Shown: positions 6,183 through 10,866 of the stretch, piece after piece
How positions within the stretch are numbered: position 1 is the stretch's first letter
Layout: every line of letters starts with the position of its first letter
Virus record (IMG/VR): IMGVR_UViG_3300009159_008407
DNA from: an uncultured virus (IMG/VR IMGVR_UViG_3300009159_008407)
Taxonomy: Duplodnaviria > Heunggongvirae > Uroviricota > Caudoviricetes
Length of the DNA stretch: 20,000 bases
Reading direction: 5' to 3' (one strand)
The notes under the pieces: generated by a model
What the model saw: the letters and a program-made list of their open reading frames with translations, nothing else
Database searches by the model: none
What the model was told of the DNA's origin: nothing
Made by a program: the position numbers and the translations under genes

Positions 6183-7310
6183 ATGGATAAAGAATTAAAA
6201 GCTGCTTTAGATAGTATAGATGAAATCAATCCCTATGCTACATATTTGGATAAAAATTCCCTTAGTTTGGTTGATGGTTGGATTGATACCGGAAGCTACG
6301 TATTGAATGCGTTAATTTCAGGTAAGTTTGATGGTGGTATACCAGTAGGTCGTGTAACATTACTTGCAGGTGAATCAATGACAGGTAAGAGTTTATTTGT
6401 GCAAAAAATTCTAGCGAATGCGCAAAAGATGGGTAAGACGGTACTTATATTTGATACAGAAAATTCGATTGATCCTGTAGGTGCTGAACGTCTTGGTCTT
6501 GATATTTCAAAAGTGAAATACATCCCTTCAACAACAATTGAAGAAACTCGTAACACAATCTTTAAATTTCTTACAACTGTAAAAGAAAAGAAGCTTGAAG
6601 GTAAATTCATCATTGCGATTGACTCTCTAGGTAATCTACAGTCACAGATGGAAATGAATCGAATGGAAAAAGAAAGTACTTCCGCTGATATGGGTAGTGC
6701 TGCTCGTGCTATGAAATCACTTCTTAAGACATGCAATAATATGGGTGCTCTTACTAAGACAACCATTCTTTGTACTAATCATGTGTATGATGATCCATCT
6801 GCAATGTTTCCGTCTCTCGAGAAGAATATGCCTGGTGGTAAGTCTGTAATTTATTTACCGTCTGTATCTGTTCAACTAGCTCGTAAACCTATGAAAGACG
6901 ATGGAGGTAAGACATTTGATAGTAATATGGTTGCTGGTCAGAAAAATTATTCTGGTGTTATTATTCGTGCTCTCACACGTAAGAATCGTTTTGTAAAGCA
7001 GTATCTCGAGGGTGAGATGTATTTGTCATTCTCATCAGGTTTAGACAAGTATTACGGTCTTCTTGACTTAGCTGTTGGTATGGGAGCCGTTATTCAAAAT
7101 GGTGCAACATATGCATTACCAAGTGGTACCAAGCTTGGGTATTATAAAAATTGGCGTAAAAATGCTAAGCTGTGGGAAGAGGATATCTTACCTAAATTAC
7201 AAGAAGAAATTACTAAAAATTGGTTGTATAGTAATGGTAATGAAGTCGAAGCTGATGTACCAGATGAAATCGACGAAATTGACGAACTAGAAGGAGATAA
7301 AGATGAATAG
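6183..7310 (+). CDS. uvsX: UvsX / RecA-like recombinase
   Basis: IDTGSYVLNALISG, Walker A GESMTGKS, FDTE, Walker B IAIDSLGNL, NHVY, MPGGK, acidic C-terminal tail. Confidence 0.95.
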   Translation: MDKELKAALDSIDEINPYATYLDKNSLSLVDGWIDTGSYVLNALISGKFDGGIPVGRVTLLAGESMTGKSLFVQKILANAQKMGKTVLIFDTENSIDPVGAERLGLDISKVKYIPSTTIEETRNTIFKFLTTVKEKKLEGKFIIAIDSLGNLQSQMEMNRMEKESTSADMGSAARAMKSLLKTCNNMGALTKTTILCTNHVYDDPSAMFPSLEKNMPGGKSVIYLPSVSVQLARKPMKDDGGKTFDSNMVAGQKNYSGVIIRALTRKNRFVKQYLEGEMYLSFSSGLDKYYGLLDLAVGMGAVIQNGATYALPSGTKLGYYKNWRKNAKLWEEDILPKLQEEITKNWLYSNGNEVEADVPDEIDEIDELEGDKDE

Positions 7311-7344
7311 TATCAAAATGCTATATTTTAGTGCTCCGTGGTGA
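7303..7344 (+). pseudogene. thioredoxin 5' remnant / 13-codon ORF MNSIKMLYFSAPW*
   Basis: ATG7303 overlaps the uvsX end, with AAGGAG at 7291-7296. 8 of 13 residues match the downstream thioredoxin N-terminus (MNEIKLLYFTASY). TGA falls exactly where the first Cys of WCGPC is expected. Confidence 0.8.
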
Positions 7345-7355
7345 AACACACCACG
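7337..7355 (+). other. GC-rich hairpin at the insertion junction
   Basis: CGTGGTG-aaaca-CACCACG: 7-bp perfect stem, no U-tract. Confidence 0.7.
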
Positions 7356-7359
7356 ACGC

Positions 7360-7367
7360 TATAAATA
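7360..7367 (+). promoter_or_regulatory. T4-type late promoter TATAAATA
   Basis: Exact T4 gp55 consensus, 5 nt before ATG7373. Confidence 0.75.
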
Positions 7368-7372
7368 GTTGT

Positions 7373-8062
7373 ATGAATAAAACTAATTTATTGTGGGTTA
7401 TAGAATATCAAAAATATTTACAGTTCATAAAAAATTGCAAAACAAAAATTTACAACTCTAATTTAGTATTACATACACATCATATCTATCCACGATTTCT
7501 TAAGCTCGACTGTAATTTATCCGAAGCTACAGTCGAGCTGTCTGTTGAAGACCACGTACAAGCACACTTATTAATGGCAAAATGTTTTGATGAGGGTTCA
7601 TATGAGTTTATATCAAATTTAAGATCCGCAAAGCTTTTAGCTAAAAACTCTATAATAGATAAAAAGCTATTAGATGCTATATATGAATCACAAAGAGGTG
7701 AAAATAACCCATCAAAGCGTCCTGAAAATAGAAAAAAGATTTCTGATGGTTTATTAGAATTCTATAGTAATAACCCAAATGCAAAGAAAGGTAAAACCTA
7801 TAAAGAAATTTACGGTGAAAATTATTTAGAAGAAATAAACAAAAGAAAAAAAGCGACAAGGACCAAAGAAGAATATAAACAAGGTGCAGCTAAAGCTGCT
7901 GCTACAGCTAAAGAACGAGGTAGTAATAGTGGTAGTAATAATTCAAATGCAAAAAAAATATCAATAGATGGTAAAATTTTTAATTGTATAGCTGATGCAT
8001 GTCGGTATTTTTCACTTTCACCTTATAAGTTGAAAACAACCAACAATATATTATATTTGTAA
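7373..8062 (+). mobile_element. free-standing HNH-type homing endonuclease (mob-like) with NUMOD-like DNA-binding modules
   Basis: HTHHIYPR...VELSVEDHVQAHLLM nuclease motif, then GENNPSKRPENRKKIS, KKGKTYKEIYG and C-terminal NAKKISIDGKIFNCIADACRYF. Start reassigned from GTG7331 to ATG7373, downstream of the late promoter. Confidence 0.85.
8030..8057 (+). promoter_or_regulatory. sigma70-like promoter for thioredoxin-queC, embedded in the 3' end of the HNH gene
   Basis: TTGAAA(8030-8035)-N16-TATATT(8052-8057), 6 nt before ATG8064. Confidence 0.6.
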
Positions 8063-8063
8063 T

Positions 8064-8333
8064 ATGAATGAAATTAAATTGTTATACTTTACTGCTAGTT
8101 ATTGTGGACCTTGTAAAATGTTTAAACCAATCATTGAGCAGTTTAAACAAAAACATCATAATTGCGATGTTGAGCACATCAACATCGAAGAACATGAACA
8201 ATTAGTTAAAAATTACAACATTAATGCTGTACCGACTTGTGTATTTGTTAAAAACGAAAAAGAAGTTTCACGTTTTTCTGGGATGAAAGGTATTGTATAT
8301 CTTGAAAATCTCTTAGACGAAGCTACAATTTAA
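8064..8333 (+). CDS. thioredoxin
   Basis: FTASYCGPCK active site (Y in place of the usual W), cis-Pro motif AVPT, 89 aa. Confidence 0.93.
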   Translation: MNEIKLLYFTASYCGPCKMFKPIIEQFKQKHHNCDVEHINIEEHEQLVKNYNINAVPTCVFVKNEKEVSRFSGMKGIVYLENLLDEATI

Positions 8334-8335
8334 AT

Positions 8336-9073
8336 ATGTCGAAAATAGTATTAGCATTCTCTGGTGGTATGGATTCTTCTGTCCTACTTCAAAAAGCGAT
8401 TGAACAGTTTGATGAAATTTATTGTTTATTTTTTGATTATGGTCAAAGACATAAAAAAGAACTAGATTGCGCTCATAAACAACTTATACGCCGTGTAGGT
8501 CATAAGAAAATTATCAAAATGAAAATTATTAATACACCACTAGATGTATTAGCACCAACTTCTTCTCTAACTAATCTAGATATTGATACACCAGACGTTA
8601 GAGAGATGAGAGGTGAGGCTCAACCGAAAAGCTACGTTGCATTCCGTAATATGCTTTTTATTACTTACCTTCTATCATATGCAGAAGGAGTTGGAGCGAG
8701 CACAGTTTGGTATGGAGCAGCTCAAGTTGATTCATTAGCAGGTTATTGGGATGGAAGCCCTGAGTTTCTAGATGCAATCAATGCAGTTGCTGACTTAAAT
8801 CGAGAGCATCGCATTAAAGTTGAAGCTCCTCTAATTACAATGTCTAAAAAAGAGATTATTGAAGAGGGTATTAGACTTGGTGTGAAGTTTAGCGATACTT
8901 GGACTTGCTATGCAGGTGAAGATAAAGCAGATGCTTATTCACCTTCTAGTAGTTTAAGGTTAGCTGGATTTGTTTCAGCAGGTTATATTGATCCAATCGA
9001 ATATAAACAAGACTTATCGTCTGTATGGGTTAAGCATAACTGCAAAAAAATCCCTTATGAGACTTATTTGTAA
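8336..9073 (+). CDS. queC: QueC-family (7-cyano-7-deazaguanine synthase-like) PP-loop ATPase, divergent
   Basis: SGGMDS PP-loop, DYGQRH, YVAFRN, APLITMSKKEII, TWTCY, DPIEY. The C-terminal Cys cluster is degenerate. Confidence 0.85.
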   Translation: MSKIVLAFSGGMDSSVLLQKAIEQFDEIYCLFFDYGQRHKKELDCAHKQLIRRVGHKKIIKMKIINTPLDVLAPTSSLTNLDIDTPDVREMRGEAQPKSYVAFRNMLFITYLLSYAEGVGASTVWYGAAQVDSLAGYWDGSPEFLDAINAVADLNREHRIKVEAPLITMSKKEIIEEGIRLGVKFSDTWTCYAGEDKADAYSPSSSLRLAGFVSAGYIDPIEYKQDLSSVWVKHNCKKIPYETYL

Positions 9074-10116
9074 AACATCTCCGCTCTAGCAGCTTGTTGC
9101 CAGGAATTTGCTGGCTTAAAACGGTCCTTGGTTGAAATGAATGTCACTTTTGGTTTGTGGTTTTCATTTTGAACAAGGACTTCCTCATCTTCAAATGGGT
9201 TTGCAAGACGTCTCTCAGAGTCATCTGGAGCAATAGTACCCATTCCATAACCTTGTAAATCAACACCAGTTCGTTGAGCTTTAGTTTTTGGTTTTTTAGA
9301 TTCAAACTCAGATTCAATATCCATTGTATGTGGTGAGCTTATAAAAATTTCCATATCTTCAGCATCAACTTTTAAATATTTCGGCAATACTTTTAAAAGT
9401 GAGTCAGCTGTTGCATCTGCACCGTTCTTTTTAACCTTATCTACAATTGCTGATTCAGGATCTAAAGATATATCAATATTAGTAGGTGTGCTAGTATCAT
9501 CCACATTAACTGATTTACCATTACTTGCAGCTGTTAAAATTCTAGCTACTAGTTTAATATCTAGAGGTACCTTAGATACTATATTAACTAAATAATCGGT
9601 AAACTCATAAGGGGCTATCGGTGATGTATCGTCAGCTGCAGCTTGTTTTTTATCTTTTGCAGCTTGCTTTTCAGCATCCATTTCTTCTTTGGTTTTAACA
9701 TTTTTAAATGCGTTAAATTCTTCAGCAGATCCGAATGTTTTACCACGATTTTGTCCTTTACCGCGTTCACGTAAAGATCTCACTTTAAGTCCAATCCAGT
9801 CACCTAAATTAGTTTTTATATACTCGTTGAATTCATCAGCAATTTCATCTTTAAGTAAACCTGTATCAATAAGATTTTTAATAAATTCACCTGCGTCAGC
9901 AGCAGCGCGTGAACCTTTAAAATATGTTTCATCTGGTACTACACCCTTCTCTTTCAAAAAGTTAATAATAAATTCAAACATTAACGGTCTTGCTGTACCA
10001 AGTTTTTTATCTTCAATAGCTTTTTTAAGGTAGCCTGTTTGGAAGAGCTTTTCAAAGCGGCCAGTTTTAGCTTCTTCAAGGATTTCTAGTTTGGTAACGA
10101 GAGAATTAAAATTCAT
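9064..10116 (-). CDS. hypothetical protein (350 aa), candidate late or virion-internal protein
   Basis: Long open frame, charged composition, late-promoter-like motif 5 nt upstream; no recognised domain. Confidence 0.7.
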   Translation of the reverse strand: MNFNSLVTKLEILEEAKTGRFEKLFQTGYLKKAIEDKKLGTARPLMFEFIINFLKEKGVVPDETYFKGSRAAADAGEFIKNLIDTGLLKDEIADEFNEYIKTNLGDWIGLKVRSLRERGKGQNRGKTFGSAEEFNAFKNVKTKEEMDAEKQAAKDKKQAAADDTSPIAPYEFTDYLVNIVSKVPLDIKLVARILTAASNGKSVNVDDTSTPTNIDISLDPESAIVDKVKKNGADATADSLLKVLPKYLKVDAEDMEIFISSPHTMDIESEFESKKPKTKAQRTGVDLQGYGMGTIAPDDSERRLANPFEDEEVLVQNENHKPKVTFISTKDRFKPANSWQQAARAEMFYK

Positions 10117-10121
10117 AAAAT

Positions 10122-10129
10122 TATTTATT
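10122..10129 (-). promoter_or_regulatory. late-promoter-like AATAAATA
   Basis: Minus strand reads AATAAATA-ATTTT-ATG. Confidence 0.6.
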
Positions 10130-10155
10130 GTTTTTTGTGTATTAACGTCTATATT
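10128..10155 (+). promoter_or_regulatory. sigma70-like promoter for the amidotransferase and GT-A genes
   Basis: TTGTTT(10128-10133)-N16-TATATT(10150-10155), 9 nt before ATG10165. Confidence 0.45.
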
Positions 10156-10164
10156 TAATATATT

Positions 10165-10866
10165 ATGTGTTCTATATTCGGTTCAGCCGATCAATCAATG
10201 TTTGAAGTTTTATATGAAGCTAATAAAGCTCGTGGAAACTTTGCATCGTCATTACTAACGCTGATGAAAGCACCAGCTGGTAATGTTGACGATGTAAGTA
10301 TTTTAAAGCAGGAAGGTTATATTAACTTCGAAAAGCAAAAGCTCAAACCTAAAAACCATGCTTACTATATGGGGCATGTACAAGCTCCAACATCTTCAGT
10401 AAGAAAATATAACTATGATACATCACATCCATTTGAGCAAGAAGATTGGCTTGTGTTTCATAATGGTGTTTTAACAAATCATGAAAGTTTGAATGAACAA
10501 TATTGTAATTGGAATGAAAATCCTGTAGATACATCTGTTATTGTGTGTATGATTCAAGAAAAATGGAATGAGCTCAAAGGTAATAAATCTCGATCTTCTT
10601 CTACTGATGAAGTTAAAATAATTGAAACGATATGCGAGAGACTTAATGGGACGTTTGCTCTCTGTATTGTTAACACTACATCCCTTAACGTCTACCTAGT
10701 AAGACAAGGTAGTACCCTCTATATTAATGATAATGGTAGTTATTCGTCTATTAAAGGAAAGGGTTGGGTTGAATTACCTGAAGGAAAGGTTGTTAAACTT
10801 ACAAAAGAGTATAAATTTAAAGAAGTTGGTAAATTCAAACCTAACTCCCCATTCTTAATTATATGA
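10165..10866 (+). CDS. class II (Ntn-hydrolase) glutamine amidotransferase domain protein
   Basis: N-terminal MCSIFG (Cys nucleophile), ARG, GHVQAPT, SHPF, VFHNGVLTN, VDTSVI, GTFAL. Confidence 0.85.
   Translation: MCSIFGSADQSMFEVLYEANKARGNFASSLLTLMKAPAGNVDDVSILKQEGYINFEKQKLKPKNHAYYMGHVQAPTSSVRKYNYDTSHPFEQEDWLVFHNGVLTNHESLNEQYCNWNENPVDTSVIVCMIQEKWNELKGNKSRSSSTDEVKIIETICERLNGTFALCIVNTTSLNVYLVRQGSTLYINDNGSYSSIKGKGWVELPEGKVVKLTKEYKFKEVGKFKPNSPFLII

Follow-up and report, generated by a model that had tools for sequence, protein, structure and literature searches.

In the 20,000-nucleotide (nt) stretch of the uncultured virus record IMGVR_UViG_3300009159_008407 analyzed here (the window; the whole IMG/VR record has 33.5 kb), a nuclease gene interrupts the thioredoxin gene (trx) between uvsX and queC. 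The first 13 trx codons are stranded upstream of the nuclease gene and break off inside the codon of the first active-site Cys; directly downstream, a second, differently spelled start opens a complete thioredoxin gene. We consider it probable that the intruder is a free-standing homing-endonuclease gene that entered a formerly single trx gene by intron-less homing, on a cassette that also brought the replacement start. New here is the family-wide link of such nuclease genes to trx, with trx remnants upstream of them.

Two thioredoxin starts around one nuclease gene

The upstream remnant (ATG AAT AGT ATC AAA ATG CTA TAT TTT AGT GCT CCG TGG TGA) overlaps the uvsX stop codon (TAG, 7308-7310), and its ATG lies 7 nt past the sequence GAAGGAG (Table 1). 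The full-length trx opens with MNEIKLLYFTASYCGPC, 1 nt past the nuclease stop codon; its product keeps CGPC, with Tyr in place of the preceding Trp. Remnant, nuclease gene, and trx occupy three different frames, each with its own start. We placed the nuclease start at the ATG at 7373 because the family alignment supports it over an upstream GTG at 7331, to which gene callers run on.

A sequence-only reading of this DNA had matched the two starts at 28 of 41 nt and 8 of 13 residues, with the greatest divergence next to the break, and a recount gave the same figures: in the codons beside the break, CCG TGG in the remnant and AGT TAT in the working copy, five of six bases differ. When the 140 nt ahead of the nuclease gene were aligned locally with the trx 5' end, the score was 17, a value reached by none of 300 control segments (8.0 ± 1.4). 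The whole ancestral site is found in neither copy: the remnant has CCG TGG TG without the rest, and the working copy has GGA CCT TGT behind AGT TAT.

An inverted copy of the left half of the target follows the remnant in the window (7349-7359) and in two related loci, L092 (∼2910-2920) and L099 (∼2940-2952). In the window this inverted half-site, CACCACGACGC, is the reverse complement of GCGTCGTGGTG, where the remnant has GCTCCGTGGTG; L092 has CACCACGGTGC. The native target in the nuclease-free relative L004, GCACC-GT-GGTGC, is itself an inverted repeat.

Empty and filled alleles

A scan of viral contigs for UvsX yielded 80 loci, which we compared with the window by tblastn. Two (L002 and L003) are identical to the window, four (L004, L005, L006, and L009) have trx between uvsX and queC and lack the nuclease gene, and the remaining 74 lack trx in that interval. 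The UvsX of L004 is 100% identical in amino acids to that of the window over residues 28 to 375 (348 residues), and the DNA of uvsX left of the junction differs at 34 of 1,080 nt (97% identity). The empty allele that had been predicted from the sequence, uvsX followed by MNSIKMLYFSAPWCGPC in a nuclease-free relative, is present in L004: past GAAGGAGATAAAG, its DNA reads ATG AAT AGT ATC AAA ATG CTA TAT TTT AGT GCA CCG TGG TGC GGG CCT TGC in one intact trx, whose product reads MNSIKMLYFSAPWCGPCKMF. Comparison with this gene confirms that the interruption follows TGG TG and so splits the first Cys codon of WCGPC (TGG TGC GGG CCT TGC in L004). All four nuclease-free loci carry a single trx and no remnant; the combination of a remnant and a separate trx without a nuclease gene, which the sequence-only reading had named as the case that would speak against it, is absent from them.

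The remnant is close to the intact trx starts of these relatives, matching L004 at 40 of 41 nt, L009 at 37, and L005 at 34. The working start matches that of L004 at 27 of 41 nt only; hence the remnant is native and the working start foreign.

A public DNA contig (545 nt) from run X7, another lake metagenome, joins 7341 to 8103 and skips 761 nt, so the empty allele exists there as well. The filled allele has been assembled repeatedly in identical form (L002, L003, L131, L132, and a contig of run X2 that spans the junction from 7243 to 7460 with 0 differences); the nuclease gene is thus present or absent at one and the same locus. Lake metagenomes contain both the filled and the empty allele, so that natural populations would allow the element's spread to be tracked. 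Among 36 loci found via the gene upstream of a second family member, L147, we saw no clean empty allele that would make a second filled/empty pair. The single RNA run compared (metatranscriptome X22) covers parts of uvsX only. A blastn search with 6900-8500 against a cultured-phage collection gave zero matches, and the UvsX and trx relatives among cultured phages share only ∼30 to 39% identity.

The uvsX-queC interval is a variable slot: it holds an open reading frame (ORF) of 233 amino acids in L018 (5106-5807) and ORFs of 103 and 253 amino acids in L056 (5127-6196). The nuclease-free trx of L006 (5120-5480) has no ATG where the gene usually starts, and it is separated from queC by ∼85 extra nt.

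Extent of the foreign DNA

To the right of the nuclease gene, identity to L004 changes within trx itself: 49 mismatches in 148 nt (67% identity) from 8064 to 8211 are followed by 7 mismatches in 122 nt (94% identity) from 8212 to 8333, with zero after 8270. About 870 nt (7344 to ∼8211), that is, the nuclease gene and roughly the first 50 trx codons, look imported. The diverged trx tract fits co-conversion of flanking DNA; these genomes are mosaic in general. In queC and the genes beyond it (8461-8560 and 9160-10700), the window and L004 show diverged patches (60 to 66% identity in 8461-8560) between stretches of 94 to 100%. Since the genomes are mosaics and queC has diverged too, the right edge of the tract is only approximate.

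The nuclease

The nuclease has an HNH-like N-terminal domain, a helical linker, and an I-TevI-type C-terminal DNA-binding domain. The last is the better marked: I-TevI_DNA-bd is the sole Pfam domain in the protein (2e-09), the sequence matches that of PDB 1i3j (6e-05), and structure comparisons align this domain with I-TevI and I-HmuI (for the I-HmuI C terminus, Z 4.4 and root mean square deviation 2.6 over 44 aligned residues). The N-terminal domain we call HNH-like with moderate confidence, because the protein matches PHROG 12434 ("HNH endonuclease," E = 5.5e-12), its motif is conserved, and relatives give weak Pfam matches. The residues L-H-x-H-H ... S-V-E-D-H-x-x-A-H are invariant in 15 homologues (35 to 71% identity), and H34, H36, H37, D60, H61, and H65 are invariant in both the 15- and the 19-member alignments, in the manner of an HH ... 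N ... H-x3-H motif; the motif Asn is Asn in the family consensus and Ala in the window protein, which is otherwise intact and keeps all invariant family residues. NUMOD3 was matched in 8 of the 15 homologues, HNH_5 weakly in 4 (best 7e-4), and HNH weakly in 3 (best 0.0025). In models, strands at 34-37 and 53-56 are followed by a helix at 58-69 (predicted local distance difference test score 80 for the whole protein and 91 for the N-terminal domain). Foldseek and VIA-align searches with the whole model or its N-terminal domain returned no HNH structure and, apart from the C-terminal matches, unspecific helical ones. The label "HNH endonuclease" given on first reading has the PHROG match, the motif, and the weak Pfam matches in relatives behind it, and no match in the fold searches.

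By tblastn, the nearest relatives from cultured phages (28 to 33% identity, partial) are annotated HNH endonucleases of Dickeya and Salmonella phages, one of the Dickeya-phage proteins being annotated as intron-encoded I-LimII. By annotation, none of these relatives has a thioredoxin next to it.

Linkage to thioredoxin across the nuclease family

Scans with the family alignment found 43 viral and 68 metagenome loci; we examined the window and the 37 stronger loci (L090-L101 and L133-L157), setting aside the weaker L102-L130 and L158-L198. They contain 32 distinct nuclease sequences, 29 of them usable, as three have no downstream sequence. An ORF with a CxxC motif starts −20 to +12 nt from the nuclease stop codon in 27 of these 29, most commonly as an ATGA overlap; all 26 such ORFs from the other loci, as well as that of the window, match Pfam Thioredoxin.

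Upstream of the nuclease genes, the remnant recurs. The 130 nt before the nuclease ATGs contain TGGTG 27 times in 3,563 nt, compared with 1.29 per kb elsewhere in those loci (Poisson 9e-13), and of the distinct upstream regions, which number 28, 20 contain it, with the in-frame reading F/V-x-x-x-W-C. Translated with TGG as a codon, the remnants read FSAPW(C), FTADWC, FSAEWC, FSATWC, FWAPW, or FTANWC, the strand and active-site start of a thioredoxin. The proximal remnant lies 18 to 37 nt ahead of the nuclease ATG; outer remnants often have their own ATG and ribosome-binding site (L091, L092, L134, L135, L143, and L146/L147), with examples such as MKKILYFSAPWC (L091), MITVTKFSAPWC (L092), MKKVFKFWAPW (L134), MKYLYFSAEWC (L135), and MLIIKRFTADWC (L146/L147). 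When each remnant region was aligned with the start of its own downstream trx, 6 of 24 distinct loci outscored nearly all of 300 controls.

The genes further upstream vary widely, from uvsX in the window to a metallophosphatase gene, a PhoH-like gene, and several genes with ribonucleotide-reductase-type Cys tails. Since the family nucleases have diverged to 33 to 60% identity, either the architecture is old and has been preserved, or each invasion creates it anew. We tried to reconstruct a donor-recipient chain from remnant similarity and gave it up, the nucleases being too diverged (33 to 60%) and the remnants too short.

Several loci (L091, L096, L135, L140, L143, and L146) carry stacked remnant units (TTT-N9-10-TGGTG-N2-4), two to three copies spaced 20 to 22 nt apart. 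A single homologous crossover does not explain them, because one crossover in the remnant predicts one unit only; they may stem from successive invasions, slippage, or binding-site repeats. The upstream genes with reductase-type Cys tails are those of L096/L147, L101, L135, L140, and L142 (...ACGGGGAECAI*, ...ECEACS*, ...DCLSCDG*); in those phages, therefore, the nuclease gene sits between a reductase and its thioredoxin. In L133 (736-1308), the trx ORF continues into a spermidine-synthase domain (191 amino acids), and the nuclease gene is interrupted by a stop codon; the joint ORF may be a chimeric contig or a fusion. A further family nuclease, met in a scan for another purpose, lies at L207 (1410-2102) and reads MEHATKLDLHKYYQYIDFLNKC...LVLHNHHIVP.

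Active-site codons of the linked thioredoxins

WCGPC is kept in 6 of 27 nuclease-linked thioredoxins, compared with 39 of 55 controls (Fisher 4e-05, with shared ancestry ignored). The controls were the 55 proteins of ≤140 amino acids among the best 150 representatives found with the window thioredoxin, the 95 longer ones being dropped. Trp precedes the first Cys in 50 of the 55 (linked versus control, Fisher 4e-04). The linked proteins otherwise read SYCGPC, SFCGPC, KTCGPC, VTCGPC, WC with L, Q, A, N, or V before PC, and so on. Among 14 close relatives of the window thioredoxin, xWCGPC is found in 11 and S[FY]CGPC in 3.

This excess of noncanonical active-site codons next to the nucleases suggests that the sequence of this motif in phage thioredoxins, a textbook case of conservation, is shaped by selfish elements. 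It also points to the working trx start as a version of the target that would be resistant to cleavage, as the sequence-only reading had proposed.

Expression signals and hairpins

That reading had further placed a promoter for the rebuilt trx at the end of the nuclease gene. A sigma-70-like match is indeed present there (TTGAAA-16-TATATT, 8030-8057), but the region holds six such matches against 6.5 ± 2.7 in shuffled sequences, no more than chance. Ahead of the nuclease gene, we considered TATAAATA as a T4-type late promoter; as it occurs once in the window, fewer than the 4.45 matches expected by chance, we do not claim it as a promoter. In the relatives, an AT-rich element, TAT(A)TTTATA, lies just ahead of the nuclease ATG, and Shine-Dalgarno sequences are missing. 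Because the abutment of nuclease stop and trx start is near-universal, we propose that trx is now more likely to be translated by stop/start coupling to the nuclease ORF.

The junction between remnant and insert can fold into a hairpin that pairs CGTGGTG of the remnant with CACCACG (7322-7372; −16.3 kcal/mol, z = −3.88, equalled in 0 of 200 shuffles). In L090, L133, L136, L137, L138, L142, and L134, a shared hairpin between about −45 and +12 of the nuclease ATG pairs TGGTG of the remnant with CACCA, and GCA with the TGC of ATGC, so that in this L090 subgroup the nuclease start codon lies within it together with an AT-rich loop. The subgroup hairpin shows weak covariation (double changes in 4 of 13 pairs; covariation term, +1.12). 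These hairpins recall those said to delay translation of T4 intron nucleases.

Proposed route of insertion and alternatives

The observations above would be accounted for as follows. In the ancestral state, uvsX was followed by an intact trx (...SAPWCGPC...) with overlapping stop and start. A cassette of ∼870 nt, made up of a short leader, the nuclease gene, and ∼50 codons from the start of the donor trx, would have arrived from a diverged phage. Its left edge would have been set after TGG TG in the first active-site Cys codon and its right edge by homologous exchange within trx. The 13 native codons would thereby have been stranded upstream with their own ribosome-binding site, and the donor start, 1 nt past the nuclease stop, would have restored a full-length thioredoxin. 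The nuclease would cut nuclease-free trx alleles in or near the DNA that codes for WCGPC, and repair from a cassette-bearing genome during co-infection would copy the nuclease gene along with the adjacent re-spelled start. The filled allele would lack a full target, since its remnant stops after TGG TG and its working copy reads AGT TAT TGT. The self-repairing, intron-less cassette first proposed from the sequence is supported by the empty allele, by the lack of an intron match (below), and by the family-wide layout; the promoter that was to be part of it is not supported beyond chance.

Several points weigh against this account. The window protein gives no Pfam HNH match up to an E value of 1, has Ala for the motif Asn, and met no HNH fold in the structure searches. 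No donor was found, and the surrounding genes could be recovered neither for the closest relative of the nuclease, P0002 (71%), nor for the three close trx relatives with S[FY]CGPC (P0018, P0020, and P0029). L004 is not isogenic with the window, given the diverged patches in queC and later genes, so that general mosaicism could account for where the tract ends on the right. Six linked thioredoxins retain WCGPC, and the excess of odd spellings was gauged against only 55 small proteins. Eight of the 28 upstream regions are without a TGGTG remnant, and the remnant ends, from which alone we place the cut site, vary: most end in TGGTG(Y), those of L097/L098 in WCG, and that of L152 in WCGP. Two loci depart from the layout. 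In L139 (1-1260) the order is reversed, with an intact trx (AAWCQHC) upstream whose stop overlaps the nuclease start (ATGA) and no thioredoxin seen in the 259 nt downstream of the nuclease gene. In L145 (1-1000), whose contig begins 30 nt before the nuclease gene and gave no intron family match, the trx after the nuclease lacks the N-terminal strand and CxxC (it starts ...IRMFKPILDK).

Homing as set out above leaves the role of the stranded start to be considered. We entertain, as a tentative idea that we would sooner doubt than believe, that the mobile element makes use of it: the stranded start on one side of the nuclease gene and the trx body on the other would both be homologous to the target and so allow homing into any phage trx, whatever its neighbors, a DNA-level counterpart of what splicing achieves for introns and inteins. 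The 20- to 22-nt repeats in several relatives would then be the fossil record of successive invasions, or else operators at whose units the I-TevI-type binding domain represses its own nuclease gene, and the hairpin between TGGTG of the remnant and CACCA downstream would time nuclease expression.

The serious rival is that the remnant is an accidental scar. An ordinary intergenic nuclease gene, with a target that may be a different one, would have replaced the native trx as part of a module by one-off illegitimate recombination, leaving the 13 codons as debris. Free-standing endonuclease genes of the T4 type normally lie between genes, the genomes are mosaic, and the uvsX-queC interval is variable; the regions without TGGTG, as well as frameshifted or deleted remnants in L143, L096, and L090, would also suit debris. 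A one-off event does not predict that 20 of 28 distinct upstream regions have a remnant, with a dozen or more different genes ahead of them, that the remnants end at one codon pair with the proximal one −18 to −37 from the ATG although the nucleases share only 33 to 60% identity, or that 27 of 29 nucleases are linked to thioredoxins, whose active-site codons are unusually variable. This recurrence, with its constant end point and spacing across contexts, argues that the layout belongs to the family's way of moving, and we regard an accidental origin as unlikely.

The same 13 codons would also lie twice, 761 nt apart, if the trx start had been duplicated locally in tandem in this lineage, the copies had diverged, and a nuclease gene had later arrived between them. 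The copies are unequal, however: compared with the allele of a relative with ∼3% difference in uvsX, the remnant is identical at 40 of 41 nt and the working copy at 27, and divergence of the working copy reaches ∼110 nt past the duplicated part. Import from a diverged donor fits this asymmetry and divergence in place does not; with no such duplication in the four nuclease-free trx loci either, this course of events seems very improbable.

The 761 nt between 7343 and 8104 could instead be a self-splicing intron that holds the nuclease gene, splicing of TGG TG to T GGA CCT giving MNSIKMLYFSAPWCGPC.... The joint is in frame by construction, a stable hairpin lies at the would-be 5' splice site, and Dickeya phages have proteins, distantly related to the catalytic domain, that carry an intron-encoded annotation (I-LimII). 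Against an intron, Rfam has no group I or II match in 6900-8500 up to an E value of 10 and none at gathering score in 18 loci of the family; the trx downstream of the nuclease gene starts at an ATG of its own and encodes a complete N terminus, as it also does in 27 of 29 relatives; the remnants of several relatives are frameshifted, stacked, or contain stops; and the joined form exists as DNA in run X7. The element was taken to be intron-less from the outset, and we see scarcely any room for splicing. Least probable is an assembly chimera of two co-occurring strains, for although both alleles do occur in lake metagenomes and contigs of run X3 stop at 7338 and restart at 8220, the filled junction recurs in independent assemblies and in the Logan contig of X2, and dozens of relatives have the identical architecture.

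Relation to known elements

The closest precedent is the mobile ORFs (mORFs) of fungal mitochondria that carry a replacement gene end, mirrored here to the 5' end. Such an mORF made a gene hybrid of atp6 in Allomyces macrogynus (Paquin et al. 1994, as related in a citing paper), and in Glomus, according to Beaudet et al. 2013 (PMC3630166), mORFs in atp6, atp9, cox2, and nad3 brought in a foreign C terminus and stranded the native one. Common to both are an endonuclease gene that comes with one end of the target gene in a foreign version, and a native end that is displaced and kept; in both, the native end is nearer to a relative's gene than the inserted end is (40 versus 27 of 41 nt here; 91 to 98% versus 64 to 81% in Glomus). 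The differences are several. In the phage the 5' end is replaced, the remnant lies upstream, and the break is at an active-site codon, whereas in mitochondria it lies in the gene's end region in general. The mitochondrial enzymes are of the GIY-YIG or LAGLIDADG type, and the window nuclease is HNH-like with an I-TevI-type binding domain. The mitochondrial endonuclease ORF and inserted end are in phase with the native gene, in contrast to the unfused nuclease ORF and three separate frames here.

SegF, SegG, and MobE are T4-type free-standing homing endonucleases that move by intron-less homing and lie between intact genes. The window element resembles them in its stand-alone nuclease next to a presumed target, its presence/absence polymorphism, and a diverged flank that fits co-conversion; it differs in lying inside the ancestral trx coding sequence, with a duplicated start that restores the gene. 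T4 mobA, with the bypass insert of gene 60, and mobE, which splits nrdA in Aeromonas phage Aeh1, are likewise nuclease genes in an essential or useful gene, accompanied by a feature that keeps the gene working. There the solution is two polypeptides or a bypass, and here it is one complete thioredoxin ORF after the nuclease. The insertion at the most conserved codons of the target (WCGPC) is shared with intron- and intein-encoded homing endonucleases; unlike those, the window has neither ribozyme nor intein, and the gene is restored by duplication of DNA rather than by splicing. To introns and inteins, the carrying of a spare start would add a third means by which a selfish nuclease gene can occupy the most conserved codons without loss of the gene.

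In the "HEG-islands" (homing-endonuclease gene islands) of ICP1-like and other phages, small genes beside nuclease genes are fragments of essential cargo, which, as the authors suggest, may serve as recombination substrates in later homing (Barth et al. 2023, preprint, PMC10055350, in the part available). The nuclease classes and cargo are different ones, and the available part of that preprint mentions no thioredoxin target, active-site break, replacement start, or family-wide count. The literature searches brought up neither a nuclease family that targets thioredoxin nor a nuclease gene accompanied by a duplicated or replacement gene start; the available portions of PMC3468402 and PMC2784036 mention both subjects and do not link them. 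The loci described here define a diverse family of uncultured nucleases with a predictable and very widespread presumed target, the WCGPC-coding DNA of thioredoxins.

Features of the locus

Table 1. Features of the interrupted trx locus and its flanks (positions in the window)
Feature	Position	Strand	Basis
uvsX recombinase gene, left flank, native to the lineage	6183-7310	+	Pfam RecA 7.5e-17; PHROG UvsX-like 5e-61
Shine-Dalgarno sequence GAAGGAG of the original trx start, now serving the remnant	7290-7296	+	Sequence reading; GAAGGAGATAAAGATG likewise before the intact trx of L004
Stranded native trx 5' end, 13 codons (MNSIKMLYFSAPW) and TGA	7303-7344	+	Homology to intact trx stops at 7343
Junction hairpin CGTGGTG-AAACA-CACCACG, 5' arm formed by the remnant end; function putative	7337-7355	+	Fold computation
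TATAAATA, putative promoter-like cassette element, 5 nt upstream of the nuclease ATG	7360-7367	+	Sequence match
Free-standing homing-endonuclease gene, 229 amino acids	7373-8062	+	PHROG 12434; Pfam I-TevI_DNA-bd; PDB 1i3j
Replacement trx 5' end, re-spelled duplicate of the remnant, SYC in place of PWC	8064-8104	+	28/41 nt to the remnant
Working trx gene, 89 amino acids, active site SYCGPC, mosaic of foreign 5' and native 3' parts	8064-8333	+	Pfam Thioredoxin (PF00085) 5e-18
Approximate foreign tract, nuclease gene and ∼148 nt of trx	7344-8211	+	Left edge, L004 and X7 joint; right edge, rise of identity to L004
queC, right flank	8336-9073	+	Pfam QueC 7e-49; 88% amino acid identity to L004

By its Pfam and PHROG matches, the window contains the replication module of an uncultured freshwater T4-like phage. 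Besides the genes discussed, it encodes a gp46-like nuclease subunit, a glycosyltransferase, a DNA polymerase, a helicase, a single-stranded DNA-binding protein, and a clamp.

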